DNA of 64,000 nucleotides from an uncultured Candidatus Saccharibacteria bacterium. Its GTDB lineage: Bacteria > Patescibacteriota > Minisyncoccia > Phycocordibacterales > UBA5272. The notes under the pieces were generated by a model that was not told the DNA's origin, made no database searches, and saw only the letters and a program-made list of their open reading frames with translations. The stretch's first letter is position 1, and every line of letters begins with the position of its first letter. The DNA lies in assembly GCA_964464695.1 (NCBI GenBank), contig CAYXKW010000005.1:8677-72676 (forward strand), in the 5' to 3' direction. The position numbers were made by a program, and so were the translations under genes. Positions 1,009 to 21,430 of this stretch are shown here, piece by piece.

Positions 1009-1015
1009 AGTGACA

Positions 1016-2350: not shown

Positions 2351-2390
2351 CACAAACCACGCAGGTGGTTTGCTCTCTATTGATCACAGT

Positions 2391-2429: not shown

Positions 2430-2430
2430 A

Positions 2431-2524: not shown

Positions 2525-2921
2525 CTATTAAAAAGTGACAAAAGTGACACTTTTTACACAATTTAATTACAGCCAGATGTCACTATTTTTTACATATAGT
2601 TATATATTCTTCTATACATCAACAAGTGTAGATATATTAATTTGGTAGATACTTGAAATAGGATCAAAAACCAGTTCTCGATTAGAAAAAACAGCGGAAA
2701 AATGAGAAGAATTTTCTAATCATTTCTATTTAAACCTTATATATCAACGAATTTGTTTTATTTTGACTCAATATTTTGACACCAAAAACTTGTGATATAA
2801 TAAGAGGTAACAGCAGAGGTGCACGAAGCAGTGCAATGAGTAACTTTTTAGATAAAGGCTCACGTAATCTTGAAAAAGATACGTGGGCCTTTGTTTGTTT
2901 TAAATCCCTAACAAACAACAT

Positions 2922-4599: not shown

Positions 4600-4733
4600 T
4601 AGTAACGGTAACAAAAACTATGACATAATGTCGTAGTTTTTGATATTTTGTAATATTTTTTTACTCTCACAATGTCGTCTTTTTTAGTTCTGCATAGACT
4701 ATGCAGGGATTATGGTTCTGTCATTAATATAAT

Positions 4734-6056: not shown

Positions 6057-6094
6057 ACATATTTTCATGGTAAAATACATCATAATTAACCTTA

Positions 6095-6646
6095 ATGGAA
6101 GCTCTAATCTTAACTTATAAATATTGGATTATATTGCCTTTAGCTATTGTAGAAGGTCCAATTATAACCATAATAGCTTCATTTCTCGCTAGTATTGGTT
6201 TATTAAATGTATTTTTCGTTTACCCATTAGTTCTTTTAGGGGATATCATCGGTGACATTATTCATTATTTTGTTGGTAGAGTTGGTGGTAATAGAATAAT
6301 AAAAAAGTACGGTCATTATTTTAAAGTAACAGAAGATAATATTCATGAAGTTAAAGCGAAGTATTTTAATAATAAAAATTCACTTTGGAAAATTATTACT
6401 CTAAGTAAAATTACACATGCCCCATCATCTCTAATTATGTTGGTTTCTGGTATTGTGAAAATTGATTTTAAGCAGTTTTTACTAATTACGACTGTTAATA
6501 ATATTTTTAAAGTACTTGCATTCGTGCTCATCGGTTTCTTCTTCGGTAAGTCATACTTAGTGATTGAAAATTATATTAGTAATTCTTGGGTAATTTTTCT
6601 ACCAATATTTGGAATCATTGTTTACTTTTTATATTCAAAAAAATAA
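6095..6646 (+). CDS. DedA/SNARE-associated (VTT domain) membrane protein
   Basis: Multi-TM protein with the DedA-like motif LAIVEGPIITIIASFLASIG and a GDIIGDIIHYFVGR region. Confidence 0.6.
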   Translation: MEALILTYKYWIILPLAIVEGPIITIIASFLASIGLLNVFFVYPLVLLGDIIGDIIHYFVGRVGGNRIIKKYGHYFKVTEDNIHEVKAKYFNNKNSLWKIITLSKITHAPSSLIMLVSGIVKIDFKQFLLITTVNNIFKVLAFVLIGFFFGKSYLVIENYISNSWVIFLPIFGIIVYFLYSKK

Positions 6647-6649
6647 TGT

Positions 6650-7339
6650 ATGAAAAAGATATCTTGTATAATTCCAACTTATAATGAAGAAGAACAAATA
6701 GAAACAATACTCAGAACTTTAAACCCGTTACTGGGTAATACTTTAGACGAGGTAATAGTAATTGATGACTTTTCTTCTGACAGAACGAAGAAAATAGTTA
6801 AAGGACACAAAAATATCCTTTTGATTGAACATACAAAAAATGAAGGGAAGAGTAAAACCATTGCAGACGGAATTAGGGGAGCAAAGAATGATATCATTCT
6901 AATGATTGATGGTGACCTAATTGGATTAAACGAAACTAATATTTTAAATCTAGTTAATCCTATACTTACTAACTTAGCTGATATATCTATAAGTTATAGA
7001 GGTAATACACCTAAGTGGTGGATTCATTTTTTTAAGATCGAAACTTTTAGTGGAGAGAGATGTTTCTATAAAGAATTACTTTTGGACAATTTAAAGGAAA
7101 TAGAATATTTACCAGGATATGGATTAGAGGTTTACATCAATGAAAAGTTAGTTAGGAATAAACTTAGGATAAAGTCTGTCCCGATGAATAATGTAACAAT
7201 AAAATTTAAATGGCACAAACATGGCGTGATTATTGGTGTTTGGAAAGAACTATTAATGTGGAAAAATATTTTTGCCACAGTAAACCCTATAAAATTAATT
7301 ATACAAGTCGCAAAAATGAAGAAACTTTTGATTGATTAA
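6650..7339 (+). CDS. family 2 glycosyltransferase, polyprenyl-phosphate sugar transferase-like
   Basis: ISCIIPTYNEEEQI ... VIVIDDFSSDRT ... DGDL. GT-A fold with a DxD motif. Confidence 0.7.
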   Translation: MKKISCIIPTYNEEEQIETILRTLNPLLGNTLDEVIVIDDFSSDRTKKIVKGHKNILLIEHTKNEGKSKTIADGIRGAKNDIILMIDGDLIGLNETNILNLVNPILTNLADISISYRGNTPKWWIHFFKIETFSGERCFYKELLLDNLKEIEYLPGYGLEVYINEKLVRNKLRIKSVPMNNVTIKFKWHKHGVIIGVWKELLMWKNIFATVNPIKLIIQVAKMKKLLID

Positions 7340-8430
7340 AGTTTATACTTTCGTAGTATTGGTTTGTAGATATATAAAGAGATTTTTGACAATACAGACC
7401 ATAGCAATCTTCTTGCTAGATTTAAGTGTTGTGTATTAATAAACATATATTCAATTTCTGGCACAGCTCCTCTATTTAACTTAAAACTCGGTGCCCCAGA
7501 ACTTATATTGAGAAATAAACCATTATCATATGCGTATTTAATAATATAGATTAAACATCTTCTGTATAAAGCATTCTCGCTTGGTCGGTTAATTTCGTAT
7601 CCAACAATTGGAGCTGTAACAGTAACAGTGTCACCTATTAATCCAACTACAGCAACAAATTTACCCTGTTCTATATCTAGTAGTAACCTTAGATGCAGTA
7701 GATTTTCTTTACAAAGTTTTTGCATATAAAGTGCCGTATATTGAATATTTTCTTCAGTGTATTTCTCTAGGTAGAGTTTATTATAAAGAACTTCTGCAAT
7801 TTTAAAATGCTCAATATTATCAACATCAGGGCTGGTGAATATGTACTTTTCTGATTTTAATAGTTCAAGATCCCTGATAGCATCTCTTTTCTTTAAATTA
7901 AAACTTGGAAATATATAGACTTGTCTTGTAACAATTTGTATCCACCCATTTCTGAGTAAATTAGTAAGAATTTCATTATTTTGAGTTCCATTTATAGACC
8001 TAATTGCCAGTGTGTGGTCAGGATGTCTCTTTACTGCTTTTTTAGTTAAAGATTTAATATCTATGTCTTTCCAATACTCACTAAAAAAGTTAGTTGATAA
8101 CATATAGTTATTTAATGTTTGTATCTTATCTACTTTAAAAAATGAAAGGAAAGACGAGAATAAATTTATTACCACTCTCATAAGAAAAATGAGTACAAAA
8201 TTTTTTATCTTGTGAAGTTCTACTTTAGAGTAGTTTATGATCATCCCATTAGGGGAAACAACATAGCAGTTGTTTTCAAATACCTCGTCTGTAACTGTTG
8301 AGAGTATTAGTTTATTATCAAGTTCATAATATTCAATTTTAGTTTTTATATTATTAAAAAGATGTTCAATTTTATTTGAACAAAGTATTGAATGTAATTT
8401 GTATGAAAAGTCTTTTTCTAAGTTATCCAT
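7336..8430 (-). CDS. FemAB/CelD-like GNAT-fold acyl(aminoacyl)transferase (putative)
   Basis: The C-terminal half shows a GNAT-like pattern (VAVVGLIGDTVTVTAPIVGY...ALYRRCLIYIIKYAYDNGLFLNISSG). It overlaps the upstream ATP-grasp gene by 8 nt. Identification is weak. Confidence 0.3.
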   Translation of the reverse strand: MDNLEKDFSYKLHSILCSNKIEHLFNNIKTKIEYYELDNKLILSTVTDEVFENNCYVVSPNGMIINYSKVELHKIKNFVLIFLMRVVINLFSSFLSFFKVDKIQTLNNYMLSTNFFSEYWKDIDIKSLTKKAVKRHPDHTLAIRSINGTQNNEILTNLLRNGWIQIVTRQVYIFPSFNLKKRDAIRDLELLKSEKYIFTSPDVDNIEHFKIAEVLYNKLYLEKYTEENIQYTALYMQKLCKENLLHLRLLLDIEQGKFVAVVGLIGDTVTVTAPIVGYEINRPSENALYRRCLIYIIKYAYDNGLFLNISSGAPSFKLNRGAVPEIEYMFINTQHLNLARRLLWSVLSKISLYIYKPILRKYKL

Positions 8431-9514
8431 TGTATTCTATATCATGAGTGGTTGCCGCGGCAAAAGAAGTTTTATAACGTATTGTTATATACATCATTTC
8501 TAAAAAAGATAAAATCTGTGCCTTAACAGGAAGCTCACCGACAACATCCCTTGCTTTTTTATAGTCATGAATCAACTCAGGCAATCTTCCTTCATGGAGA
8601 TATTTAAACCAAAACATTAGATATATACTTTTACTTATTCTACAACTTTCAAACGGTTTTGTATCGTCTGATGAAAAAGTATTATTCTTAAAGTAAATTG
8701 AATCTGACAATAAATGCAATCCACTAGTTGCTCTTGGATTACACTCAAGTACATAGAGGTCTTTTCCATCATCAATAAAATCAAAAGCAATCTGACCATT
8801 ATATTTTGTATCCTTAGCAAACTGCTCTATAAAATTATTACATTTTTCATTTTTTGTTAATTCAAAATATGTTGACGCGGCATTATTTACTAAATATTTT
8901 GGCTTATAAACAATCTGACTAATAACCTTTCCTTTGTGAATTATGGCGTAATTACATAAATAAGATCCTTTTATAAACTGTTGTTGCACCCAAGGATACT
9001 TTTCTGATATATCTAATCCTAGTATGCTTTTTTTGGTGACATCCCTTATAACATTTGTTCCAAATCTAGAAAAAACAGGTTTGAGGAGTGTATCTTTATC
9101 TTCAGTTCTGATTTGATTAATACTTTCTATTAACCTCATCTCGGGTACTTTAACAAAATTATTCATAAATTGCTTAAATGTAAATTTATTATGAAGTCCA
9201 AGCAATAGACCATTCTCAGGAATAAAAACCTTTTCCTTTAGTGCTGTATCTTGAACGACTGAGCTTAAGTAAAAAACGTCTTCACAGGTAGGTATAACAA
9301 AATCACTGTTCTCTATAATCCTAATGATCTCTCTTTTATAGTTTTTGAAATCTAGTTTTGGTGAAGGTATTTTTATAAATTTTACATTTTTATAATATTT
9401 AGCCATCGGAAAGTACAAAGAGTCAACTACAGTAACGTCGTGACCAGATCTTTGCATAATTTTAACCCATTCTATGGTTACAGGGGCTCTTGGACAAGTA
9501 ATAGTAACTTTCAT
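8423..9514 (-). CDS. ATP-grasp domain enzyme, probably a carboxylate-amine ligase
   Basis: DLYVLECNPRATSGLHLL is typical of the ATP-grasp C-terminal catalytic region. 363 aa. Confidence 0.6.
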   Translation of the reverse strand: MKVTITCPRAPVTIEWVKIMQRSGHDVTVVDSLYFPMAKYYKNVKFIKIPSPKLDFKNYKREIIRIIENSDFVIPTCEDVFYLSSVVQDTALKEKVFIPENGLLLGLHNKFTFKQFMNNFVKVPEMRLIESINQIRTEDKDTLLKPVFSRFGTNVIRDVTKKSILGLDISEKYPWVQQQFIKGSYLCNYAIIHKGKVISQIVYKPKYLVNNAASTYFELTKNEKCNNFIEQFAKDTKYNGQIAFDFIDDGKDLYVLECNPRATSGLHLLSDSIYFKNNTFSSDDTKPFESCRISKSIYLMFWFKYLHEGRLPELIHDYKKARDVVGELPVKAQILSFLEMMYITIRYKTSFAAATTHDIEYNG

Positions 9515-9516
9515 AT

Positions 9517-10023
9517 TTATGAGACTAGTTTTTTAACAAGAGAACTACTATTTAAAATAATATTGTGAGTACCAACTAAGTTTTTATGAATGTGTGAATT
9601 ATTATATTTTGTAAAAATAAAAGGAACAGTAGTATCAAATAAAAATCCATATGATTTTTGTTCTCTTACCTGTATATGTGTTTTGTATGGTAATTTATTG
9701 ATTATTTTTCTAAACCACACAAATTTCACTTGGTGGGGCGAAGCTATTGTTATAATGCTATCTATTTTTTTGTATAGTTCTTCTTTTAAAGAGTAAGAAA
9801 TAACTCCACCAAAAGAGTGTCCTACCAAAATAAACTTACCATCCTCTTTTTCTAAGAAAGAGTTAATCTCACCAATTAATGCAAGATGTTTACCTGTTTG
9901 GTGTAATGTATAAAACATCGGAAAATAAAAAACCTCCATACCTATGGATTCAAAAGCTTTTAAAATAAGATAATTTCTAAATCTAAAATTATGTATACCT
10001 TGTATAAAAATTACTTTTTTCAT
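9517..10023 (-). CDS. alpha/beta hydrolase, thioesterase or lipase-like
   Basis: GxSxG nucleophile elbow (LVGHSFGGVIS). 168 aa. Confidence 0.5.
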   Translation of the reverse strand: MKKVIFIQGIHNFRFRNYLILKAFESIGMEVFYFPMFYTLHQTGKHLALIGEINSFLEKEDGKFILVGHSFGGVISYSLKEELYKKIDSIITIASPHQVKFVWFRKIINKLPYKTHIQVREQKSYGFLFDTTVPFIFTKYNNSHIHKNLVGTHNIILNSSSLVKKLVS

Positions 10024-10031
10024 GAGAGGTA

Positions 10032-10946
10032 TTAAAAATCAACAAAAGACTTTGTTGGATTGTATTTTAACATATTTTTAGCTTTGTTTATAGAAAGATA
10101 ATGGTTAGAAGTCATCTGGTGGACTATGTATTTACTTATAAAAGGCGCTTTTTTAATACTTAATAACTTAAAAAGAATCTCTAATATAGAACCAATTAAA
10201 AAAGCTACTTTTGTTGATATATATAGATTTTTTGCTTGTATATTAAACTTCTTTTTAACATGTGCCATTAGGCTATTTATTTTTACTGATTCTTGGTCTG
10301 CGATGTTAAAAATTTCTTTCTGAAATTCTTCTTTTGTTTCAATGCTGTTTTTAATTGCCAGACAAAGATTATCTATATGCGTTATTGAAATAGTATTATC
10401 ACCACTTCCTAAAATAATAAATCTATTAAATCTATGAGACCTTAATAATCTTGGTATAATTTTTTTATCCATAGCACCATAAATGACATGCGGTCTTAGT
10501 ATTATTTTTTGTGATTTACTATCATGATTTAAAACAACCAGTTCTGCTTCATATTTTGATTGACTATACCCATTTAAAAAATTACCACACATAGATGCCT
10601 CATCAATTGTGTGATTGATGTCCTCAGGGTCATAGACACTACATGAACTTATGTATATAAACTTTTGCAAGTTAGAAAAACTATCTAATGTGTTTTTCGT
10701 ACCAACACAATTATTCTCATAGCATTCCTTATAAGTTGCCCAATCATCAACGGTTCCAGCACAGTGAACTAAAACATCAATTTGAACTGGGTGACTTATT
10801 TGCCCATTAGATATGTCCCAATAAGTAAAGTTCTTGTCATTTTTTCTTCGCGAGAAACCAACAACATCATAGTTGTGTTTTTGTAAGTAAGTATAGAGAG
10901 AACCCCCTACAAATCCATTTACTCCAGTGATTCCTATTTTTAACAT
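10032..10946 (-). CDS. NAD(P)-dependent SDR, epimerase/dehydratase/reductase family
   Basis: N-terminal Rossmann motif GITGVNGFVGGSL. Its start is translationally coupled to the upstream AMP-ligase stop, so it could act as a reductase (R) domain partner. Confidence 0.6.
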   Translation of the reverse strand: MLKIGITGVNGFVGGSLYTYLQKHNYDVVGFSRRKNDKNFTYWDISNGQISHPVQIDVLVHCAGTVDDWATYKECYENNCVGTKNTLDSFSNLQKFIYISSCSVYDPEDINHTIDEASMCGNFLNGYSQSKYEAELVVLNHDSKSQKIILRPHVIYGAMDKKIIPRLLRSHRFNRFIILGSGDNTISITHIDNLCLAIKNSIETKEEFQKEIFNIADQESVKINSLMAHVKKKFNIQAKNLYISTKVAFLIGSILEILFKLLSIKKAPFISKYIVHQMTSNHYLSINKAKNMLKYNPTKSFVDF

Positions 10947-12469
10947 AAACTGTTACTAGTGATATAGTATTTTATTTTGTTCTTATCTATTTTTTGTGTT
11001 CTACCACTAAGAGGAAGTTCCATTATGATGATTTTATCAGGAAGAGCTGTTTTATCTATACTGTGCTCTCCTTTGCTTAATTCATTAAATATTCTTTTCT
11101 CAAAAGTCTTATTATCCTCTTGTAAGGTCATATCTTTTTCAATAGCTAAATAAATTTTCTCATCTTCTAATTCATCATTATAAATTCCCACCATTGCACA
11201 GTTTTTAATACCCCTTATATTACTTATCGTAGATTCAAAAATTGAGGGGTATATATTATAATTTTTTCTTATAATCATGTCTTTTTTTCTCCCTAATAGT
11301 ACTAGCCCATTTTTATCAAGAGTCCCTAGATCTCCAGTGTAATGTTCTGTTACCTTATCTAGTCCGAGGTATCTATTAAAAAGATTTTTTCCAGAAACAC
11401 AAATTTCATTGTCTATTATTCTTATTGTGACACCATTTGCAACTGTTCCTAGTAAGTCACCATTTGTATTTAAATTTATCTTATCTTGTAACTCCACATA
11501 CGAGATGGGTAATATTTCCGTTGCCCCGTAAACACAGATAACTTTTGTACTTTTAGATATTATTGTATTTAGTTTAGATAAAAATCCTTTTAAAACAGGA
11601 GCTGAGCCTAGGACGATTGTTTCAAGTGTATTTGGAAGTTTTACATTGTTTCGAGAACAAAACTCCATTGTTTGATTATACTCGGCAGGGATTCCAAAAG
11701 TTTTGTTTACTTTAAATTTAAGTACATCTTTATAAAACTTATCTGTTTTAAAATTAAGGTTACTTGGCAATACTACTCGTGACCCTGACAGGATAGACGC
11801 TAATAAAAAATGAAGTTGTGAGGAGTAGAAAATGTCAGTATGTTGTATATTAAGAATTTCTTCAATTTTTTTAAGTATTTCAAATAAGGATTCGTAGGTA
11901 TGAACCACGCCCTTCGGAATACCCGTTGTGCCAGATGTAAAAATAATTACAGAGTCTTTTTGATCATCTGTGCGTATTTCAGTAAAATTAGACTTATTAT
12001 TTTCAACTTTTTTAACGAGTATTTTATTAAGTTTTCTGAGTGTACTTATATCAGGAATATTTATATGGAACATCTTTATGAGAGTTTCAATATAAGGGGT
12101 GTTAATTATAGTGTTGAGAATCGGATCTACTAATACGTGTTCTGGTTTTGCAAAGTTAACTCTCCCAATAAAATTATCTTTCCCCATTGATGGGTCAGCT
12201 AAGACTAAAACACCACCAGCTCTAATAATTGCAAATATATACACAATACTTTCAATACTTGGTTTTGCTAGGAATAAGACTTTGTCCTCTTTTTTAAAAC
12301 CATTCTTAACTAAACGAATTGCTACTGAATCAATCTGAAGTAAAAAATCTTTAAAACTAATTTTTTTACCATTAGTAGTTTCTATAATTGATGTATCTTT
12401 TAGAAACTCTTTTTGTGAAAATAGTTTCTCTAAAATAAGATTAGAATACAAATTAATCTGTGATTTCAT
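10940..12469 (-). CDS. AMP-dependent synthetase/ligase, an adenylation enzyme
   Basis: AMP-binding core motif IFTSGTTGIPKGVVHT. 509 aa. It overlaps the upstream ACP gene. Confidence 0.75.
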   Translation of the reverse strand: MKSQINLYSNLILEKLFSQKEFLKDTSIIETTNGKKISFKDFLLQIDSVAIRLVKNGFKKEDKVLFLAKPSIESIVYIFAIIRAGGVLVLADPSMGKDNFIGRVNFAKPEHVLVDPILNTIINTPYIETLIKMFHINIPDISTLRKLNKILVKKVENNKSNFTEIRTDDQKDSVIIFTSGTTGIPKGVVHTYESLFEILKKIEEILNIQHTDIFYSSQLHFLLASILSGSRVVLPSNLNFKTDKFYKDVLKFKVNKTFGIPAEYNQTMEFCSRNNVKLPNTLETIVLGSAPVLKGFLSKLNTIISKSTKVICVYGATEILPISYVELQDKINLNTNGDLLGTVANGVTIRIIDNEICVSGKNLFNRYLGLDKVTEHYTGDLGTLDKNGLVLLGRKKDMIIRKNYNIYPSIFESTISNIRGIKNCAMVGIYNDELEDEKIYLAIEKDMTLQEDNKTFEKRIFNELSKGEHSIDKTALPDKIIIMELPLSGRTQKIDKNKIKYYITSNSLC

Positions 12470-12695
12470 TGTTAATTACCTTTAGTACATCACCTAGGGT
12501 TTTATATTTTCTAAATAGTTCTTTATTTTTAGGCTCAATGGTATATTTATTTTTAACTACAGCCAAAAGCTCCCCAAGATCTATCGAATCTTTAATATAG
12601 ATAGAAAGATCAGAAGATTCATTTAAGTCTTCTTGTATCTCAAATATGTAATTTAGTATCTCCACTAAGTTATCTTGTGTCATTTTGCTATGCAT
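12453..12695 (-). CDS. acyl carrier protein (phosphopantetheine-binding)
   Basis: 80-aa acidic protein with a DSIDLGEL serine attachment motif. Confidence 0.6.
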   Translation of the reverse strand: MHSKMTQDNLVEILNYIFEIQEDLNESSDLSIYIKDSIDLGELLAVVKNKYTIEPKNKELFRKYKTLGDVLKVINNEITD

Positions 12696-13479
12696 TTTTT
12701 CCTTTATAAAAAGATGACTGCTCCTCTTTGTATTTATGGTGTAGTGTACCCATTACTTTATCCCAGAAAGAAAAATACAACCCGTAATTTAAATAACCAT
12801 ATTTATGATGCATATTATGGTGGATAGAACTTGTAAAAACTGCACCAAGTTTTTTATTCATAGTAGGGGTTAGGAATTCATACCCCAAATGACCAATTGT
12901 GTTTCCTATAGAATTAATAATAAATACTGCTACAACCGTATAAATATGAACTGGAATAATAAGACACATTAATATAAAATAAAATCCAAAAATAACATTC
13001 CCCAGAGGACTAAAAGAGAAATTTGTGAATGGTGTTGGGTTTTTATTTGTATGGTGAACCGCATGAGTATATTTGAAGACTGTCTCATGTGAATGCATGA
13101 ATCGGTGCACCCAGTAAAAATATGTATCCTGAAGTCCTGCAAATAATAGTATTGTAAATACAAAGTATAGATTACTGTGTTCAGAAATATCAAAATATAC
13201 TTTTGTATATCCATGATTTACTAAAGATATTAAAATATAGGCTATTATAATATAACAAAGCATGCTTACTGTAGACCATTTAATATCGAAAATAATACTA
13301 TCTTTGCTTGGTTCTTCGCTCTGAATTTTGTAGTCTCTTAAAGTGTTCTTTTTTAATTTATATACATAAAGATAAGCTATTGATCCTAGAATATAGTTAC
13401 AAGATAAAAAAACACCCACAAATAAATAAAAGTAGTTTATATGATCTATTTGCAATAAATTGTTTAGATTTGAAAGCAT
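12688..13479 (-). CDS. fatty acid hydroxylase / sterol desaturase family membrane di-iron enzyme
   Basis: Histidine boxes HRFMHSH, HAVHH and HHNMHH in a multi-TM protein. Confidence 0.65.
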   Translation of the reverse strand: MLSNLNNLLQIDHINYFYLFVGVFLSCNYILGSIAYLYVYKLKKNTLRDYKIQSEEPSKDSIIFDIKWSTVSMLCYIIIAYILISLVNHGYTKVYFDISEHSNLYFVFTILLFAGLQDTYFYWVHRFMHSHETVFKYTHAVHHTNKNPTPFTNFSFSPLGNVIFGFYFILMCLIIPVHIYTVVAVFIINSIGNTIGHLGYEFLTPTMNKKLGAVFTSSIHHNMHHKYGYLNYGLYFSFWDKVMGTLHHKYKEEQSSFYKGKNA

Positions 13480-13575
13480 AATTATGACTTAATAATAGCA
13501 CAATTTACCTAAAATTTTAAAAAATAACAGCACCAAAGATAAAGGTACTGTCATATGTTTTTCAACATGTAAAAT

Positions 13576-14250
13576 CTATTGTTTCCAAACACTTTTAAGG
13601 AAAGACCCGTATTTGAGGAAATGCAAAGTCTGTTCATGAACCTGCCCTGAAAAAACAAGTCCTGTGTGACTTGTAAAAACTTTTGTATGGGGGATATTCT
13701 CCCCAACCTGAGTTTCACTAACTAGGACAACACCGTCATTTTCAAGTAACTTTTTATAACCCTCAAGACCTTTAGCGTTGGGGAGTAAATCAAGCAACTT
13801 AAACGTCGACGCTACCCTAAACAGATTAAAAGTATCATCCGTTCCTGCGATAACGCCAATGCGAACAGGCGTGTCTAGTGGCATTGTCACTCCGTCAGTT
13901 GCGATCAATCTTATTGCCTTAGGTAACATCCATGAAGTTTTGCCTTGAGAGATGGTTCTCCCTAGGATAGACCCATTGAGTGGTGATCCTAAGCAGACAA
14001 CCTTTTCAAGACTTGGGAACTGTTTCAAGTGGTATGCCGTGATTGTGCCCCCTAAACTATGACCAACAATAACCTGAGGGCGAAAATCATTAACTTCTTT
14101 GATAAATCTAGTTGTGATGTCATCTGTTTCTGGAATGAGTGGGTAGCTAAAGACTTTTACATCATATCCAGCATCCTTTAACTTTTTTACGAAAGGTGAC
14201 ATCAAAAACGCATTCATGAACATACCGTGAACTAAAAGAACTTTGTCCAT
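13576..14250 (-). CDS. alpha/beta hydrolase; start chosen at the internal MDKVLLVHGM
   Basis: GHSLGG nucleophile elbow. HG oxyanion motif near the N-terminus. Confidence 0.5.
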   Translation of the reverse strand: MDKVLLVHGMFMNAFLMSPFVKKLKDAGYDVKVFSYPLIPETDDITTRFIKEVNDFRPQVIVGHSLGGTITAYHLKQFPSLEKVVCLGSPLNGSILGRTISQGKTSWMLPKAIRLIATDGVTMPLDTPVRIGVIAGTDDTFNLFRVASTFKLLDLLPNAKGLEGYKKLLENDGVVLVSETQVGENIPHTKVFTSHTGLVFSGQVHEQTLHFLKYGSFLKSVWKQ

Positions 14251-14306
14251 TGCTAATCTCCTGTAATTAGAACTACAAATAAGACTACAGGAACACAACG
14301 ACTGAG

Positions 14307-14837
14307 TCAATTTGTCTTTAAAGAAATAGAAAATATATAACCATTATCTTCAAAGAGATTACTTATCCAGGTACTGTTTTCCTTTTTCAGAGTTATATAG
14401 CCCTTAACGTAAGTTACTATTTTATATTGATTTGGATTAGAAATTGTTTCGTCAGATTTCTGAACAGACTCTTTCAAAGACCACATAACAGTTTCTTGGG
14501 TTGTTGTCTTTTTATAGAATTTCGTTAAAATAGACAATTCATTTTCATCGCAACAATAACTAAGTAGTTCTCTTTTTCTTGGACGTAAGTATTCAACATC
14601 AATGCCTATATTAAAATCTTTACACAAAGCCACAAAAACTATTTCCTGTGAATCAGAAACCGAACAAAATAAATCTTCATGGTTGGATATGTAGGGTTTA
14701 TTGTTTTTCTTTTTTATCACCACATCAAGACCAAAAGCATTTTTAGCTAAAGTTTTAAGTAGCAGATATTTATCTGTGATACTTTTGTTTCCTATCTTAT
14801 AAAATACAACTTTTTTGTTTAAAACTATTTTTTGCAT
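14307..14837 (-). CDS. 4'-phosphopantetheinyl transferase (Sfp/AcpS superfamily)
   Basis: YISNHEDLFCSVS ... FNIGIDVEYLRPR resembles the PPTase motifs (SISHS / GIDIE). Confidence 0.5.
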   Translation of the reverse strand: MQKIVLNKKVVFYKIGNKSITDKYLLLKTLAKNAFGLDVVIKKKNNKPYISNHEDLFCSVSDSQEIVFVALCKDFNIGIDVEYLRPRKRELLSYCCDENELSILTKFYKKTTTQETVMWSLKESVQKSDETISNPNQYKIVTYVKGYITLKKENSTWISNLFEDNGYIFSISLKTN

Positions 14838-14876
14838 TATTTACTGTATAAGTTTAGTATACTAGATACCATACTC

Positions 14877-15881
14877 ATGAAATCTAAAATTACAGCGCTG
14901 GCATACTATTTGCCAGAAAAAATAGTGACCAATAGTGAAATAGAGGCTAAGTTACAACAAAATAACCCTCATCTACACATACCTGAAAACATTATAGGGA
15001 TAACCACAGGTATAAAATCTAGAAGGTTTTGTGGTGAAAACGAATATAACTCAACGTTAGCATCTAAGGCGGCACTAGTTTTATTTGAAAAATATAGTAT
15101 CAACCCAAAAGATATTGATTTACTTATTTTTGCTTCAGCAGGACAGGATCTCATTGAACCTGCAACTTCTCACATAGTGCAAGATATTTTAAAAACATCT
15201 TGTAGAGTATTTGATATAAAAAATGCTTGTAATGGATTTATAGACGCATTAATTGTAGCAGATGCTTTTATTAAATCTGGAATACATAAAAATATACTTA
15301 TTGTAACAGGTGAGGTTTGTTCAAGTGTTATTAAATGGAATCTAAAAGATAGAGATGATTTAAAAAATAGTTTCCCAGGGTATACGTTAGGAGATATGGG
15401 GACAGCTATTTTAGTGCAAGAATCAAATAATGATTTTGGACTAGTAGTGAGTGAGTGTTTAAATGATAGCAGTAAATGGAAGGTTGGAACTCTACCAACT
15501 GGAGGATCTAGGCACCCTCGAGGTGATGAGTACACATATTTTAGTGGTGATGGTCCACAGTTGAGAGATTCTTTTGCAAAAATTGCACCAAAGTTTTTTA
15601 ACGATTTCCTAATAAAAAATAATATAGATAAAGATACTATTGACCATATCTGTATGCACCAAGTTTCTAAAGCTTACTTAGAAGAAATGGTTTCTTCATT
15701 GAAAATTGATCCTAATAAGATTATTCATACTGCGGAACAATTCGGTAATGTCGCCGCCGCCACAATTCCACTTCAGCTTGCACTATTAAATGAAAAAGAA
15801 AAGATAAAAAAAGGAGATAAAATTTTACTAATAGGTTTAGCGGGAGGGGTTAGTGTTGAGCTTGTATATATTATTTGGTAA
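14877..15881 (+). CDS. 3-oxoacyl-ACP synthase III-like (FabH/KAS III family) condensing enzyme
   Basis: MKSKITALAYYLPEKIVTNSEIE has a FabH-like N-terminus. Cys region NACNGFIDAL. C-terminal GNVAAATIPL. Start taken at an internal Met of the 14832 ORF. Confidence 0.7.
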   Translation: MKSKITALAYYLPEKIVTNSEIEAKLQQNNPHLHIPENIIGITTGIKSRRFCGENEYNSTLASKAALVLFEKYSINPKDIDLLIFASAGQDLIEPATSHIVQDILKTSCRVFDIKNACNGFIDALIVADAFIKSGIHKNILIVTGEVCSSVIKWNLKDRDDLKNSFPGYTLGDMGTAILVQESNNDFGLVVSECLNDSSKWKVGTLPTGGSRHPRGDEYTYFSGDGPQLRDSFAKIAPKFFNDFLIKNNIDKDTIDHICMHQVSKAYLEEMVSSLKIDPNKIIHTAEQFGNVAAATIPLQLALLNEKEKIKKGDKILLIGLAGGVSVELVYIIW

Positions 15882-17352
15882 ATAATTCTAATATTTTTTG
15901 TCTATTTGGTTTCAATGTATGAGTATAAGGAAAATCAGTACTGTTAAATAAAGTCACTTTTTCTATTTTAATATTGTTAGGTAATTTTGAATGAAGATGA
16001 TCTAAATCTATTGTAATCTTTTGTTCAGATTTTATTGCACAGTATATAACTGGGGAATCTTGTCTTAGTTCATGCACGATGCAAACCTCTTCAGTATCCG
16101 TAATAGTAGAGATAATATACTCCAAATCTTCAGCAAAAATCTTATCTCCAGTTGGCCATACAATTAGATTTTTAGTTCTACCTTTCAGTACTAAATTGTT
16201 ATTCTTATCAAAGTCAACAACATCACCTGTATTAAATTCAGTATTACTATAATTTGGATAATATCCTAAAAATATATTATCTCCTGATACCACTAGTTCA
16301 TTATTTTCATTTTTTGTATATTTTAAACCCTTTACAATCTGACCAACATTACCCTCTTTCCTTTTTTGGTTTATAGATATTGAGATAACAGGTGATGTCT
16401 CAGTTAGCCCATAACCAAGATGAACTTTATATCCGAGTCCTTGAAAGAAATCATCTGTTTCTTTGCTTAACATTGCCCCACCAACGACAAAACTTTTCAG
16501 ACTTGTACCTATTTGATTTCTGATAACACTAAACAATACTCTTCTTACTATACTTGGGGCATACGATGAAAGTATAATAAATCTCTTCACTAGATTTCTA
16601 ATATTTTTGTTACGAATCTTTCTAAGAATAGATGATTGTATTAAATACAAAACTTTAGGAACAACTATTATAGTTTTTATCTTATATTTTCTTATAGCTT
16701 TTATTATTTTAAATGAATCAGGTTTTTCTAAAAAAACTATATGTGAACCAACTAGCAGAGGTATTATTAGTCCTGTTGTTTGTTGATAAGCATGGGACAT
16801 TGGTAAAATACTAAGTACAGACTCTTCTTTTGTATGGTGATATATATCAAGAATTTGGTATGCATTTGTTAGAATATTCTTCTGACTTAGCATTACTCCC
16901 TTTGGTATACCCCATGTACCAGAAGTAAAAAGTATTTCTGAAACATCATTTGAATTGCTGTTAAATAATGTTTCTGTGCGTGTTTCTCGTGACAGTAGTT
17001 CTTCTATGTGTAAAACATGACCATTTTTTAATGTGTATGAATTAGAAATAACTAGTATAGGTTTAATATTTTCAATGACACTATCTATAAAGTTTTGACT
17101 TACTCTAGTGTCAACAGGCACTATTACCCCACCTTTTAAGATTACAGCAAAATAGATACAAACCCATTCTATATTTGGTATATCAAATAAAACAACCCTG
17201 TCACCTTTCTTCACTTCATGTAACTTAGAAATATATTTGTATATCTGCTTATACACATCACCATACGTTATATTAATTTCACTTTCAAAACTAGAAAAAG
17301 CAGTATCGTTGTTATCTTTAAATCTGTCTACTAATTGTTTGAAAGAGTCCAT
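15871..17352 (-). CDS. AMP-dependent synthetase/ligase, a fatty-acyl-AMP ligase-like second adenylation enzyme
   Basis: LFTSGTWGIPKGVMLS AMP-binding motif. 493 aa. Confidence 0.7.
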   Translation of the reverse strand: MDSFKQLVDRFKDNNDTAFSSFESEINITYGDVYKQIYKYISKLHEVKKGDRVVLFDIPNIEWVCIYFAVILKGGVIVPVDTRVSQNFIDSVIENIKPILVISNSYTLKNGHVLHIEELLSRETRTETLFNSNSNDVSEILFTSGTWGIPKGVMLSQKNILTNAYQILDIYHHTKEESVLSILPMSHAYQQTTGLIIPLLVGSHIVFLEKPDSFKIIKAIRKYKIKTIIVVPKVLYLIQSSILRKIRNKNIRNLVKRFIILSSYAPSIVRRVLFSVIRNQIGTSLKSFVVGGAMLSKETDDFFQGLGYKVHLGYGLTETSPVISISINQKRKEGNVGQIVKGLKYTKNENNELVVSGDNIFLGYYPNYSNTEFNTGDVVDFDKNNNLVLKGRTKNLIVWPTGDKIFAEDLEYIISTITDTEEVCIVHELRQDSPVIYCAIKSEQKITIDLDHLHSKLPNNIKIEKVTLFNSTDFPYTHTLKPNRQKILELFTK

Positions 17353-17439
17353 TTGGGAGTTATTATAACTACATTATAACATCTTTGTATATCGTAGTTT
17401 TATTAAATACATACTATAATGGTACTATTAAAATAAACT

Positions 17440-18261
17440 ATGAAAATAAAACAATCTAGTAAGAAATGGTATGTCGTACTTCTAATTCTTTTTATTTCTA
17501 CTATAGTTTATCTTTCCATACGACCAACAAATAATGCTGACTGGACTTTGGATCAGCAGATATTGCCATCTGCCAAGATTTCTAATGATTTAGTAACAAT
17601 CGAGAATGTCCGTAATTTTAGATATACGAATACAAGTGATTACACGCCTAATTACTACACCAAGACATATGATTTGAGTAAGATAAAAACAGTTGATTAT
17701 ATTGTTGAACCATTTGGAGAATTCAGTGGTGCAGCACACACGTTTCTTTCATTTGGATTTGAGGGAGATCAATATGTTTCAATCTCTGTAGAAATTCGCA
17801 AAAAGAAAGGACAATCATTTTCTCCATGGAAAGGACTGCTTAAACAGTACACCCTTGTCTATGTTGTTGCAGATGAGCAGGATGTAGTAAAACTAAGAAC
17901 AAATTACAGAAAGGATGATGTGTATGTATACCCAACTAGAATTGACCAAGCACATGCAAAACAATTGTTTTTAAGCATGATGCAAAGAGTTAACAAGCTT
18001 CATGATGATCCTGAATTTTACAATACTATCACTAATACTTGTACCACAAATATTGTTCGTCATGTGAATGAGGTATCAGAAGTAAAAGTACCCTTTAGTT
18101 ACAAAGTGCTTATGCCTGGATATTCAGATAAGCTAGCCTATGATTTAGGGCTCCTCGACACCACACTCCCATATGACAAGATACGAGAAAGGTATCAGAT
18201 TAATGATAAGGCTATGAAGTATGCTAATGACCAAAACTTCTCTATTAAAATAAGAGAATAA
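17440..18261 (+). CDS. hypothetical protein with an N-terminal membrane anchor, possibly DUF4105-like
   Basis: One TM segment (WYVVLLILFISTIVYLSI), then a soluble domain. No confident family assignment. Confidence 0.4.
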   Translation: MKIKQSSKKWYVVLLILFISTIVYLSIRPTNNADWTLDQQILPSAKISNDLVTIENVRNFRYTNTSDYTPNYYTKTYDLSKIKTVDYIVEPFGEFSGAAHTFLSFGFEGDQYVSISVEIRKKKGQSFSPWKGLLKQYTLVYVVADEQDVVKLRTNYRKDDVYVYPTRIDQAHAKQLFLSMMQRVNKLHDDPEFYNTITNTCTTNIVRHVNEVSEVKVPFSYKVLMPGYSDKLAYDLGLLDTTLPYDKIRERYQINDKAMKYANDQNFSIKIRE

Positions 18262-18331
18262 GCTTTGGTTCTTATAATTTAAGACTAACCGAAAAGCATT
18301 ATAAACGACGCTTCTCGTGCTAGCTGTTGAA

Positions 18332-18405
18332 GGTGACCCCACGGAGAGTCGAACTCCGCTTACCGGCATGAAAAGCCGATGTCCTAACCGATAGACGATG
18401 GGGCC
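18332..18405 (-). tRNA. tRNA-Glu (UUC)
   Basis: Reverse complement GGCCCCATCGTCTATCGGTTAGGACATCGGCTTTTCATGCCGGTAAGCGGAGTTCGACTCTCCGTGGGGTCACC folds as a cloverleaf. Acceptor stem is 7 bp, anticodon loop TTTTCAT gives UUC, and the T-loop is GTTCGACT. Confidence 0.85.
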
Positions 18406-18439
18406 AATATTATTATTCTATATGTACACTCTATCATTC

Positions 18440-18538
18440 CCTCCGGCATGAAAAGCCGACTGCGCCTCACGGCGTGATTTACTAATCACCTAACCGATAG
18501 ACGAATTAGCAGATTCGTGGCTTGGCCCGATGGGGCCA
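18440..18538 (-). pseudogene. tRNA-Glu-like 5' fragment (first ~43 nt) split by two hairpin-forming insertions, with no T-arm or acceptor 3' strand
   Basis: Reverse complement reads GGCCCCATCG [GGCCAAGCCACGAATCTGCTAATTC] GTCTATCGGTTAGG [TGATTAGTAAATCACGCCGTGAGGCGCAG] TCGGCTTTTCATGCCGG. The three blocks are identical to tRNA-Glu positions 1-10, 11-24 and 27-43. Confidence 0.6.
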
Positions 18539-18658
18539 ATTTATAGATACAACTTAGAGTAGCTTTTACCTACTAAAGTCCTTGTATACTAACACAAAAG
18601 TTTACTTTTTCAAAATCGGTGGTAGTGTTGTATACTATATAACTATAAGAGCGGTTGG

Positions 18659-18680
18659 CTCGAGAAGCTTGGCTTCAAAG
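18659..18680 (+). promoter_or_regulatory. conserved palindrome-core motif TCGAGAAGCTTGGCTTC(A/G)AA about 90 bp upstream of tRNA-Val
   Basis: The same 20-mer occurs on the minus strand at 61191-61210 and 61316-61335 upstream of tRNA-Ile. It is followed by a perfect 10-bp hairpin at 18683-18706. Confidence 0.4.
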
Positions 18681-18766
18681 ATGCTTGAAACCAGCAGGTT
18701 TCAAGCGCAAGATGGTAGATATATCAATGCGTATACAAAGTGTGCCGGTGAAACAAATATAAACAC

Positions 18767-18839
18767 GGGCGGTTAGCTCAGTTGGTAGAGCGCCACATTG
18801 ACGTTGTGGATGTCAGAGGTTCGACTCCTCTATCGCCCA
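18767..18839 (+). tRNA. tRNA-Val (GAC)
   Basis: GGGCGGTTAGCTCAGTTGGTAGAGCGCCACATTGACGTTGTGGATGTCAGAGGTTCGACTCCTCTATCGCCCA. Anticodon loop TTGACGT gives GAC. Acceptor stem is 7 bp. Confidence 0.85.
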
Positions 18840-18896
18840 CAGAAATACAAAAAGCAGAATCACATGATTCTGCTTTTTGTATTTCTGTGGGCGATA
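18831..18896. repeat. perfect 30-bp inverted repeat (hairpin) whose 5' arm includes the last 9 nt of tRNA-Val; 6-nt loop cacatg
   Basis: 18831-18860 is exactly the reverse complement of 18867-18896. A second 9-bp hairpin, gaaaatgaa/ttcattttc, lies at 18898-18919. Confidence 0.85.
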
Positions 18897-18920
18897 AGAA
18901 AATGAACTGCTTCATTTTCG

Positions 18921-18985
18921 TGAGGAGTCGAATACGGGTCGGAAATCTACTTCGAACGTAGTGAGATAGATTTGTGACCGACTCC
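18921..18985 (+). repeat. structured dispersed repeat element of the same family as 2276-2350, followed to ~19130 by degenerate related boxes (GACGTCGCGAAGCC, GACGTCGAAGTCGGGTCG, GTCGACTTCGCGAA, GTAGCCGACTCCGTG)
   Basis: Seen directly in the sequence. Confidence 0.7.
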
Positions 18986-19243
18986 TTTTCTGCTGGTCGA
19001 ACTGAGACGTCGCGAAGCCATTTTTGTATTCAAAACTGTGACGTCGAAGTCGGGTCGTCTACAGATGTCGACTAATTTACCAGTCGACTTCGCGAAAAAA
19101 GATTTGTAGCCGACTCCGTGAAATTACATGTAACAAAACCACTCCTCTAACCCCTTACCCTACAAACCAGTCTTCTATCCCATTTTTTATGCTACTATTA
19201 TAGTACTTACTAGTTACCGTATTTCGTACTCTTTTACACTACT

Positions 19244-19669
19244 ATGAACACTTCTATTACATGGAACGAACAGTATTCTATTAATGTCCCCTCAATCGAT
19301 GAGCAACATAAATATTTCATTAAGCTTTGCAATGATCTCTTAGCACTTGGAACAAAAGAATCCATAGATAGGCAAGATGCTCTAATTGGCATTATGAAAT
19401 TTGGTGATTATACTGCATACCACTTGGCTGAAGAAGAAGAGTTTCTTATCAAAGTAAATTCCCCTGATGCATTTATCCACGTACATGCTCACAGTCAGTT
19501 CAGAGAGAAAATAAATGAATACATCACTCTTATTCGTATTGAAACAAGTGATGTGAAAAAAGTCACCTTAGAAACATCTACATTTGCAAGCACATGGCTT
19601 TTGGAGCACATTGAATTAATTAAGAAGAACTCTACTCAAACAGAAACAAAACTTGGAGAATTCGCATAA
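19244..19669 (+). CDS. hemerythrin-like metal-binding protein (bacteriohemerythrin family)
   Basis: N-terminal ITWNEQYSINVPSIDEQHKYFIKLCNDL, then His-rich HVHAHSQF. Matches the hemerythrin HHE pattern. Confidence 0.6.
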   Translation: MNTSITWNEQYSINVPSIDEQHKYFIKLCNDLLALGTKESIDRQDALIGIMKFGDYTAYHLAEEEEFLIKVNSPDAFIHVHAHSQFREKINEYITLIRIETSDVKKVTLETSTFASTWLLEHIELIKKNSTQTETKLGEFA

Positions 19670-19678
19670 CTACACACA

Positions 19679-21430
19679 ATGAACTCAGACACTAACCTAC
19701 GAGACTTATCTACAACTGGAGGTTGGATGAGGAATGCTCGTGTAGCAATTGTACTTATTGTAATTGGCAGCTTATTCCTACGTTCTAGGTTCGACCTTTT
19801 CCATTACGACACAAGCATCCTACTTAAAGTATCCTTCTTGTACCTCCTGACAAGTACTTTCTTTGCACTATTTAACAAAAAAATAAGAACAACCAGCCAA
19901 GAAAAGCTTGCCACATATTTTGAACTTACCGTTGATATTATTTTCATAACTCTTATCGTGTACTCAACCGGAGGAGTGCAGAGCAGACTTGCATTTTTAT
20001 ATATTGTCCCTATTTTATCTGGTTCATTACTCTCCCCTTTTGCATCAATCATCATTGGACTTTCAACACTTGTTGCATATTTTGGCCTTATATATGCAGA
20101 ATATACAAATTTTATTACTTCCGTCTTCACTGATACGGTAGCTGATGTATATTTTTCAAAAATACAGATGATACGACAATCACTTATTGTCATCATTACA
20201 ACATTCATTGGAGCGTATTACTTTAATAGTATTAAAAAACTAAATACTCAAATTGTTAACATTAAGGAAGAATCAACCGCGAAAAGTAAAGCAATCTTAG
20301 AGAGTATCGGTGACGGAATTATCGTAACAGACCGCCAAGGAATTATTGTCGAGATTAATGATAAAGCCTTACACTTACTTAACTTAGATTTTGAAGACTG
20401 TGTCGGGAAACCACACCATGCTGTATGGAATGTTACAACACAAAAAGGAGAGCCTGCCCTACTTTCAGAAAGACCAATTGAGAAAGTTCTTGCAACTGGT
20501 ATCCGTTTCTTCAATACTACCGCAACAACAACTACATATTATGAAAGAAAGAACATGGGCACATTCCCTGTTCTTACAACGGTAACGCCTGTTACCTTAA
20601 ATGATAAAACCATTGGTGTTGTGGAATCATTTAGAGATATCACTATGGATAAAAAAGTGGATGAGGCGAAGAGTGAATTCATTTCAATTGCGTCTCATCA
20701 ATTAAAAACACCTCCGACTGCAATCAAGCTTCTCACTGAAAGACTTCTTGGATCTAAAATGGGCGAATTGAACGAAAAGCAAAAGGAGTACATTACTGAT
20801 ATCCATACCTCGAACCAAAGAATGATTGAGCTTGTAAACGCTCTTTTGAATGTATCAAGGATAGAGCTTGGAGGATTTTCAATTCAAGCAAAAGATTTTG
20901 ATTCACTGTCACTACTAAAAAATGCAATCACAGAATTAACACCTCTCGCAGAAAGAAAAAGCATACATATCTCCACTTCATTCCAGGAGTCGAACTTACT
21001 GCTTCCACTTGATGAAACACTTTTCCGTGTTCTAGTTACTAACTTAATAACTAACGCTATCAGATATTCTCACGAAAATAGCGAGCTGGTAATTTCTTAT
21101 ACAAAAAGCACACAAGGTGAAACTGTTGGTGATAAGAAATTAACTCAGGATTACCATATTTTTAGCTTTACAGATACTGGTCTTGGTATTCCTGACGATG
21201 AAAAGGATAAAATATTTACAAAGTTTTACAGAGCAAGTAACACTAAAGAAAACCACCCTGACGGGACTGGTCTTGGGTTATATATCGTAAAATCGATTCT
21301 TAAAAAATCAGGCGGAGATTTATGGTTTATTTCTAAAAAAGACGTTGGTTCAACTTTTTATATCGGTCTACCAATTTCTGGTATGAAATCAGTCGACACT
21401 GGTAAAATAATATCTCCCCCTTTAGAGTAA
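19679..21430 (+). CDS. membrane-bound PAS-domain sensor histidine kinase
   Basis: N-terminal TM segments, a PAS-like region (ILESIGDGIIVTDRQGIIVEIN), the H-box SHQLKTPPTAIK and an ATPase G-box GTGLGLYIVK. Confidence 0.8.
   Translation: MNSDTNLRDLSTTGGWMRNARVAIVLIVIGSLFLRSRFDLFHYDTSILLKVSFLYLLTSTFFALFNKKIRTTSQEKLATYFELTVDIIFITLIVYSTGGVQSRLAFLYIVPILSGSLLSPFASIIIGLSTLVAYFGLIYAEYTNFITSVFTDTVADVYFSKIQMIRQSLIVIITTFIGAYYFNSIKKLNTQIVNIKEESTAKSKAILESIGDGIIVTDRQGIIVEINDKALHLLNLDFEDCVGKPHHAVWNVTTQKGEPALLSERPIEKVLATGIRFFNTTATTTTYYERKNMGTFPVLTTVTPVTLNDKTIGVVESFRDITMDKKVDEAKSEFISIASHQLKTPPTAIKLLTERLLGSKMGELNEKQKEYITDIHTSNQRMIELVNALLNVSRIELGGFSIQAKDFDSLSLLKNAITELTPLAERKSIHISTSFQESNLLLPLDETLFRVLVTNLITNAIRYSHENSELVISYTKSTQGETVGDKKLTQDYHIFSFTDTGLGIPDDEKDKIFTKFYRASNTKENHPDGTGLGLYIVKSILKKSGGDLWFISKKDVGSTFYIGLPISGMKSVDTGKIISPPLE

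Follow-up and report, generated by a model that had tools for sequence, protein, structure and literature searches.

Why should an intact tRNA gene be preceded, at a distance of only 37 nucleotides (nt), by an interrupted copy of its own 5' part? The question is raised by the tRNA-Glu locus in a stretch of 64,000 nt of contig CAYXKW010000005.1, from an uncultured Candidatus Saccharibacteria bacterium (hereafter the window). The intact tRNA-Glu(UUC) gene occupies 18332-18405 on the minus strand (ARAGORN; Rfam tRNA, 52.6 bits) and lacks an encoded CCA; the partial copy lies upstream of it at minus 18440-18540. Positions within the tRNA are those of tRNA-Glu, the minus strand is the tRNA sense, and labels such as L001, L015 or L026 denote numbered genome and metagenome loci compared in the analysis. 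At a probability of roughly 55%, we favour the reading that the fragment is a dead, partial and older copy of tRNA-Glu that has stayed at the native promoter position, would be co-transcribed with the live gene and removed by RNase P, and has been colonised by palindromic modules.

The copy comprises three exact blocks, colinear with the tRNA by blastn and repeat search. Block A, ATTGGCCCCATCG (18528-18540), covers tRNA positions -3 to 10 (13/13 in the repeat search); block B, TCGTCTATCGGTTAGG (18489-18504), is the D-arm, positions 8-23 (16/16 by blastn); and block C, TCGGCTTTTCATGCCGG (18443-18459), is the anticodon stem-loop, positions 27-43 (17/17 in the repeat search, and also found by blastn). 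Read in the tRNA sense, ATTGGCCCCATCG is followed by GGCCAAGCCACGAATCTGCTAAT, TCGTCTATCGGTTAGG, TGATTAGTAAATCACGCCGTGAGGCGCAG, TCGGCTTTTCATGCCGG and a 37-nt spacer or tail, AGGGAATGATAGAGTGTACATATAGAATAATAATATT (18406-18442), before the tRNA itself begins, giving a mosaic of positions 1-10, a module, positions 8-23, a diverged 24-53 segment, positions 27-43 and the tail. The initial annotation had described a real, colinear copy without a T-arm, and so it proved; the 3' acceptor strand is missing too, and neither part was found anywhere in the copy. Its finer boundaries needed redrawing: the blocks 27-43 and 1-10 stood, the latter extending to -3, whereas the middle block runs over positions 8-23 and not 11-24; the copy begins at 18537 or 18540 and not at 18538; and the first insert measures not 25 but 26 nt or, counted otherwise, has a core of 23 nt bordered on either side by the TCG of the tRNA (positions 8-10). 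ARAGORN calls three tRNAs in the window and none within 18406-18545, and Rfam finds no tRNA in the copy even at E<=10. With the Rfam 15 covariance models there was no credible match besides tRNAs and hairpin noise in window 18200-19300 (E<=10) or in L015, L027 and L056 (E<=1), the gathering and E-value modes returning tRNAs, 16S and miRNA-like hairpin noise and nothing else. The core of tRNA-Glu is identical in 43 genome loci and is found in the candidate phyla radiation (CPR), Kiritimatiellae and Lentisphaerae alike, making it useless for taxonomic placement; the flanks in the window resemble contigs of Saccharibacteria metagenome-assembled genomes (MAGs) best, and from this flank similarity alone the host is probably a Saccharibacterium-like member of the Patescibacteria.

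The two interruptions between the blocks are of different kinds. Insert 1, CGAATTAGCAGATTCGTGGCTTGGCC (18502-18527, plus strand, running opposite to the tRNA sense), is one copy of a dispersed module, M1, with hairpins GAATT-AGCA-GATTC and TGGC-TTG-GCC and a 3-nt CGA/TCG doubled at its edges. What had been taken for a second insertion, of 29 nt, is TGATTAGTAAATCA, CGCCGTGAGGCG and CAGT (18459-18488, minus strand), and is better read as a remodelled piece of tRNA-Glu itself. The 30 nt after GGTTAGG equal tRNA positions 24-53 in length and match them at 17 of 30 bases (13 of 18 in the 3' part), and the ungapped register of 18459-18504 against 18353-18398 is a 46-nt repeat with 72% identity, an alignment that MAFFT also returns. 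The anticodon arm of this segment has become a hairpin of 5 bp whose loop is AGTA (TGATT-AGTA-AATCA), with CGCC-GTGA-GGCG as the second hairpin, and the exact block that follows is a second copy of positions 27-43. Only the first of the two proposed insertions therefore survives as an insertion. Among the hairpins described in the inserts, TGATT-AGTA-AATCA alone is retained in the minimum-free-energy fold of the leader, which is somewhat more stable than shuffled sequences (z = -2.6). The suspicion that simple point-mutational decay does not describe the fragment was well founded: it contains a dispersed palindromic module, and its hairpins show compensatory changes in related contigs. The tail is A/T-rich, with TAGAAT 9 nt ahead of tRNA +1, a weak promoter-like match (ATGATA-17-AATAAT) and a terminal AATATT that recurs in L015 and L027; it resembles the tails of tRNA-Val and tRNA-Ile in a GATAGA..GTGYACA..A/T-rich pattern, a likeness judged by eye.

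Neither chance nor faulty assembly accounts for the copy. When 155-nt segments were drawn at random from the window 20,000 times, their exact matches to the tRNA formed colinear chains of at most 16 nt; the observed chain has blocks of 10, 16 and 17 nt with a 3-nt TCG overlap, and a chance origin is therefore excluded. Two loci from other samples, L089 (JGI 3300043411) and L088 (JGI 3300056623), match window 18333-20000 at 100% and 98.7% identity, respectively, and the copy itself is identical in L088; both keep the copy and the 361-nt spacing between tRNA-Glu and tRNA-Val seen in the window. Since these independent assemblies carry it, the copy is no assembly artefact. Contigs L001 and L002 stop within or beside tRNA-Glu, as expected given that repeats break assembly.

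A divergent tRNA-Glu/tRNA-Val pair recurs as a conserved feature of CPR genomes (Saccharibacteria, Paceibacterota, Gracilibacteria), with a basic spacer of 72-118 nt that holds back-to-back promoters, and at loci without the copy TTGAAA-N16/17-T(G)GTAGTAT stands immediately before tRNA-Glu. In the window, the corresponding promoter-like site P1 (TTGAAA-16-TAGTAT, TG-extended; 18586-18613, minus strand) and the native 5' leader behind it (18541-18585, minus strand, orthologous to the leaders of L026 and L038) stand ahead of the copy and not of the live tRNA-Glu. In L026, a Saccharibacteria MAG and the closest locus found, there is no copy, and sequence orthologous to window 18541 onwards is joined straight to +1 of the intact tRNA-Glu; the orthologous leader of L038 likewise lies directly ahead of the live gene. 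Compared with L026 the window holds 133 nt extra, which are the copy and its tail. The copy thus occupies the usual place of the tRNA behind the promoter, where L026 has its live tRNA-Glu. Related genomes accordingly divide, with the copy conserved in L088 and L089 and absent from L026.

More distant loci supply a graded series of such copies. In L015 (Parcubacteria), a full-length copy stands upstream of the live tRNA-Glu and is 98% identical to it over positions 1-53, with a structured insert of ~88 nt in the T-loop, a mutated 3' acceptor strand and a 3' flank that shares homology with the flank of the live gene; then comes a spacer of 23 nt, and its final AATAATATT is also the ending found in the window. 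L027 (Saccharibacteria) is arranged alike, with its tRNA part decayed to ~85%. The metagenome contigs L056 and L087 carry M1 at the tRNA position and in the orientation seen in the window, with TCG duplicated too, and behind M1 they have the remodelled anticodon arm of the window as well, in the form GATG-AGCA-CATC or AATTAGCAAATC, and then GTGCCGGGAGG; L087 also carries TGATTAGTAAATCA, L056 runs on into a second copy of the anticodon arm plus a T-loop insert, and the two-hairpin arrangement of the former 'insert 2' recurs in L056, L087 and L026. From these comparisons we read the copy in the window as a truncated member of the series formed by L015, L027, L056 and L087. It has the features of a pseudogene from local tandem or partial tRNA duplication, being colinear and on the same strand, having lost essential parts, and having a full-length intermediate in L015.

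M1 itself is not confined to tRNA-Glu. Scanning metagenomes with the pattern GCCAAGCCAYGAATCNGNTRATTC gave 42 loci, several of them sharing one contig, and with the genome loci the total comes to 48 copies at 45 loci, in both orientations. The module is 27 nt long and forms the hairpins (C/T)GAATC-AGCW-GATTC(G/A) and TGGC-TTG-GCCA; covariation is seen in the pair that closes the first hairpin (C-GAATC..GATTC-G versus T-GAATC..GATTC-A). It occurs in the leaders of tRNA-Thr (two isoacceptors), Phe, Ile, Val, Arg (three isoacceptors) and Leu (two isoacceptors), in most of them oriented opposite to the M1 of the Glu copy and of the Ile leader in the window; twice upstream of the 16S gene in L052; and at the tips of long hairpins and among arrays of similar hairpins. 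Long open reading frames (ORFs) contain M1 too, in frame and in either orientation. In the MurB of L067, M1 adds nine residues (WPSHESAD) exactly at a nine-residue gap relative to solved MurB structures (PDB 7orz), and in L046 and L053 it lies within a MurE-like ligase; L054, L076 and L048 possibly have M1 in protein-coding genes as well. The Val leaders of L025, L036 and L043 contain M1, whereas those of L040, L015 and the window do not. Because a 27-nt sequence is inserted in frame in either orientation, M1 behaves as an insertion module at the level of DNA, and its multiple hairpin-forming copies, both orientations and insertion polymorphism are those of a dispersed small palindromic repeat. 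Its flanks show no consistent target duplication and no terminal inverted repeats, and no transposase was identified, no search aimed at transposases having been made. An identity with GTAG-tagged repetitive extragenic palindromic (REP) sequences was rejected, TAGGC/TAGAC being present at only ~6/31 flanks with no universal tetranucleotide. TIGR-Tas arrays were rejected too: TIGR units have 8-12-nt dual repeats with 9-nt spacers and adjoin a Tas gene (PMC12045711), and the hairpins here are unlike them. A scan of the window for hairpins with AGCA/TGCT loops showed no spread outside tRNA flanks.

The same leader design precedes the other two tRNA genes in the window. Behind a promoter-like site at 18609-18636 (TTCAAA-16-TATACT, plus strand), the tRNA-Val leader (18649-18766, plus strand) opens with a pseudo-copy, GAGCGGTTGGCTCGAG (live gene, GGGCGGTTAGCTCAG), and continues with the hairpin GAAGC-TTG-GCTTC, AAAGATG, a second hairpin, CTTGAAACC-AGCA-GGTTTCAAG, a D-loop remnant, ATGGTAGAT, and a tail. 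The 5' copy of tRNA-Val is interrupted in the D-loop by a two-hairpin unit and has two mismatches, common to the window, L026 and L088; the hairpins covary across 12 units. The tRNA-Ile leader, identified by sequence comparison and repeat search (61109-61354, minus strand), consists of a pseudo-copy, GCGCAGTTGGCTCGAG (61346-61331), three hairpin units, an M1-like module at 61252-61279 that is reversed relative to the tRNA, and a similar tail. Beyond the window, at least 10 other tRNA species in CPR contigs have a matching leader design, each leader opening with the first 9-16 nt of its own tRNA, and the units in between can share ~90% identity at separate tRNA genes within one genome (L051 versus L069). 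In L073 (~8640-8860), two successive 5'-anchored partial copies precede tRNA-Pro, the nearer with a hairpin insert in its D-loop, and at tRNA-Arg(CCT) L058 has one additional tandem unit compared with L068, a polymorphism of expansion or contraction. The hairpins of the leader units show compensatory changes in 10/15 pairs, one of which separates the window from L088 at 98.7% identity.

Copies of tRNA ends are also distributed with a strong polarity. Across 69 distinct CPR tRNA loci, a sample biased by having been picked through tRNA-Glu or M1, matches with <=2 mismatches to the first 12 nt of the tRNA numbered 19 upstream, 2 downstream and 0-1 inverted, and matches to the last 12 nt numbered 1 upstream and 18 downstream; inverted copies of the last 12 nt were found 14 times within 120 nt downstream and 0 times upstream. 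Despite the biased sample the pattern is clear, 5'-end copies lying upstream and 3'-end copies downstream.

On the 3' side, tRNA-Val runs into a perfect palindrome (18831-18896, 32-nt arms) whose left arm includes the last 10 nt of the gene, such that its 3' acceptor strand can, by sequence, pair either inside the tRNA or with the inverted copy downstream; similar palindromes follow tRNA-Val or tRNA-Glu in L011, L015, L018, L028 and L040. A structured element then extends over 18893-18990 (plus strand). It consists of a hairpin with a CTGC loop, then GAGGAGTCGAA, which repeats the tRNA's TTCGACTCCTC exactly and in inverted orientation, and a long stem ending in TTGTGACCGACTCC, with an outer helix in which GAGGAGTCG pairs with a copy of the 3' strand of the tRNA's own T-loop/T-stem. 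Counterparts of this element stand behind tRNA-Val or tRNA-Glu in L009, L011, L015, L018, L026, L028, L040 and L088, some of them ending in an exact copy of the tRNA 3' end. Over nine copies, 15 of 35 predicted pairs show compensatory changes, and pairing reaches 95.5% against ~40% with slid partners; one invariant G.U pair points to the tRNA-sense strand, and the outer helix covaries with the tRNA species. The element matches no Rfam family and is clearly under structural constraint. A second, degenerate unit lies at about 19000-19125. A nested-gene model, in which the 5' copy up to position 43 and a 3' pseudo-half from 44 were an old gene split by the live one, was abandoned: the TAAGC with which the 3' piece starts is part of a generic hairpin, AAGAAAGCCAA-CTGC-TTGGCTTTC, that also follows tRNA-Val, and in L009, L018, L026 and L028 the 3' pieces occur without 5' copies.

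At tRNA-Glu, the 3' side has a history of its own. In L088 and L089 the order is tRNA, terminator and downstream element, whereas in the window the homologous terminator and element lie 15.9 kb away at 2265-2435 (minus strand); positions 1-927 of L088 match window 373-1299. The intervening 15.9-kb segment (~2436-18313) is absent from L088 and L089 and contains a ParB-like methylase (2922-4202), a helix-turn-helix protein (4186-4599), a large serine recombinase (4734-6056) and a low-GC (28-32%) cluster of lipid/acyl genes, with a decayed copy of the tRNA 3' end at 2462-2475. Because this segment separates tRNA from terminator by comparison with L088 and L089, the 3' side of tRNA-Glu is a site of island insertion. 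The initial annotation had raised the possibility of an attachment-site relic; for the resident island this fails, since the island-free L088 and L089 carry an identical 5' copy, which is therefore no scar of it. The recombinase is on the 3' side, 12 kb away, the copy block begins at the mature 5' end of the tRNA, and no tyrosine integrase was seen among the window ORFs scanned.

How might such a fragment have arisen and persisted? We propose that a 5'-anchored duplication left the older tRNA-Glu copy at the original place of the gene behind the promoter, with the live gene 133 nt downstream. Transcription from TTGAAA-16-TAGTAT would pass through the relic, which would form most of the 5' leader of the pre-tRNA, and RNase P would cleave it off at tRNA position +1. 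As the downstream tRNA-Glu provides the function, the relic could tolerate insertions of modules; that it is dispensable is suggested by its absence from L026 and by the different ways in which lineages truncate it. Several observations sit uneasily with a neutral relic. The tRNA-derived blocks are identical to the live gene at 43/43 positions, and the mosaic recurs in L056 and L087, with leaders that cannot otherwise be aligned; so old a relic, if neutral, should have diverged, as the tRNA-Val copy did, which points to gene conversion, re-creation or constraint. The hairpins are held by compensatory changes, even against L088, which would fit either selection on structure or a hairpin-dependent mobility, and the structural constraint on the downstream element weighs against a purely neutral relic. 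The polarity of end copies comes from the biased set of loci. The proposal would also require some process that duplicates a tRNA end exactly from +1.

The block identity, the compensatory changes and the constrained downstream element lead us to retain a different explanation, that the tRNA-Glu-like D-arm and anticodon stem-loop together with the AGCA/AGTA hairpins fold into a functional cis-acting 5' leader, which might recruit a factor that binds tRNA (RNase P, a modification enzyme or the glutamyl-tRNA synthetase GluRS), or titrate it, or guide pre-tRNA processing. Exact conservation of the blocks, a mosaic shared by distant contigs, covarying leader hairpins and a fold better than shuffles all argue for it, as do the presence of such leaders at 3/3 tRNA genes in the window and the strongly structured counterpart downstream of tRNA-Val/tRNA-Glu, with its 35 pairs, 15 compensatory, and an outer helix that follows the tRNA species. 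We nevertheless consider it doubtful, if possible. L026 does without the copy, as do many CPR loci whose spacers measure 72-118 nt; the tRNA-derived part of the copy decays or is cut short in lineage-specific ways (85% in L027, cut at position 43 in the window, acceptor broken in L015); the occurrence of M1 in both orientations and within ORFs speaks against a leader motif acting at the RNA level; and no Rfam family matches. The early suggestion of a tRNA-derived structured RNA is hence certain as to derivation, probable as to transcription as a leader, and a proposal as to function.

Somewhat less probable, and unlikely in our view, is that the copy is the scar of an older integration, in which an element entering the 5' part of tRNA-Glu brought its own positions 1-43 and promoter tail and pushed the host's 5' part upstream, later deletions sparing 37 nt of the element. 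The polar arrangement of end copies, each ending at a mature tRNA end, would suit such a history, and so would the promoter-like tail at +1 and the terminator palindrome at the 3' end of the live tRNA, as an attachment site that rebuilds the tRNA needs; tRNA-Glu is, moreover, an integration hot spot, with the 15.9-kb island and its large serine recombinase on the 3' side. Against it, the identical copy in island-free strains cannot be the scar of the resident island, the repeats are only 37 nt apart, no tyrosine integrase was found beside the copy, and integrative elements reportedly duplicate the 3' part of a tRNA as a rule. A single phage-type attachment site (attP) also cannot explain why leaders carry the 5' end of their own tRNA while their units are ~90% identical (L051 versus L069). 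The last alternative, also voiced at the outset, is a disrupted yet functional tRNA gene (intron-containing, split or permuted) whose pieces are joined after transcription. Archaeal non-canonical tRNA introns occur in the D-stem and near position 26, and the interruptions here lie in just such places; yet the genome is bacterial by 16S, the T-arm and 3' acceptor strand are missing, neither ARAGORN nor Rfam makes a call, and an intact tRNA-Glu lies 37 nt downstream. One 'intron' is a module found also in ORFs and the other a mutated anticodon arm, and inserts of 26 and 30 nt are too small for group I introns, making this explanation extremely improbable.

Stable-RNA operons commonly have tandem promoters (rrn P1/P2), structured leaders and trailers, and processing stems. 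The reading of the fragment as a relic in the pre-tRNA leader would give the locus a comparable layout, with an upstream promoter, a long structured leader to be removed, a second A/T-rich promoter-like region and a structured trailer; the difference is that leader and trailer are built here from copies of the tRNA's own ends and from repeat modules. Compared with tRNA fragments and pseudo-tRNAs described as integration relics (van der Gulik et al. 2023, PMC9897764), the copy is likewise partial, non-canonical, on the same strand and at a demonstrable island insertion site, but it is a 5' part, upstream, 37 nt from the live gene and at the native promoter, it persists in island-free strains, it is interrupted by a module, and its design recurs at many tRNA species. 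M1 shares with REP sequences and bacterial interspersed mosaic elements (BIMEs), miniature transposable elements with inverted repeats (MITEs) and Rickettsia palindromic elements (RPEs) its short, hairpin-forming, multi-copy and bidirectional nature (PMC3184786, PMC3733652, PMC1458961). Like the RPEs, of which 53 of 526 lie in protein genes and one in a tmRNA gene (PMC1458961), M1 is found between genes, in the relic of an RNA gene and in frame within protein genes; unlike all of these, it is just 27 nt long with two hairpins and no GTAG/CGTC tag, is strongly tied to stable-RNA leaders and hairpin loops, and belongs to another phylum (Patescibacteria). Archaeal multi-intron, split and permuted tRNAs (Fujishima et al. 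2009/2010, as related in PMC10714607) may offer an analogy in their short structured sequences in the D-arm, anticodon and T-loop regions, as may archaeal tRNA-intron transposition, in that apparently related sequences occur at several tRNA genes in both (PMC10714607). The differences are that the present host is bacterial and that the interrupted copies lack essential tRNA parts and have an intact gene alongside, so that splicing would be unneeded.

The literature searched on CPR tRNA introns and insertions, pseudo-tRNA duplications and CPR palindromic repeats yielded no description of this arrangement, and both the flank architecture and the 27-nt module appear undescribed there and in Rfam. 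By itself the fragment is a piece of a tRNA pseudogene that leaves the tRNA set of the cell unchanged; its follow-up revealed the dispersed module, the polar copies of tRNA ends and the covarying element after tRNA-Val/tRNA-Glu. We tentatively raise the possibility, which we hold with less than even confidence, that patescibacterial tRNAs are embedded in an undescribed three-part flank system comprising a leader with the tRNA's own 5' end, a covarying trailer with inverted and direct copies of its 3' end, and a family of two-hairpin modules that occupies both flanks and also enters protein genes in frame. Such a system could be either a mini-element that targets tRNA loops and regenerates its target gene, or a lineage-specific scaffold for the expression, processing and termination of pre-tRNAs. 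If functional, it would bear on how tRNAs are made in organisms with minimal RNA-processing machinery; if selfish, it would be mobile DNA of a new and very small class, resident in highly reduced genomes. In practical terms, the repeats break metagenome assemblies inside tRNA-Glu and may mislead tRNA annotation.

Some further features of the surroundings deserve mention. In the tRNA-Ile region (61109-61470, minus strand) there is a hairpin with 18-bp arms and a TGC loop at 61364-61402, and the hairpin units of the leader include a 51-nt repeat (61160-61210 and 61285-61335; 80% identical). Between tRNA-Ile and the 3' end of the 16S gene (63644-64000, minus strand) are ~2.5 kb with opposite-strand ORFs, and a terminator stands right after the tRNA, from which we conclude that the usual 16S-tRNA-Ile-tRNA-Ala-23S operon is broken up here. 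Four Saccharibacteria contigs assembled with SPAdes (L011, L020, L027 and L038) have their ends precisely at position 53-55 of tRNA-Glu, as would fit a second copy in those genomes with at least 55 nt in common; the same position is the start of the T-loop insert in L015 and L027, and the stops suggest repeat-induced assembly breaks in many genomes. Finally, a stretch at 1300-2264 without counterpart in L088 adjoins the displaced terminator and element at 2265-2435, and the ORF at 1450-2223 (minus strand) has a weak match to AbiGi, an abortive-infection antitoxin.

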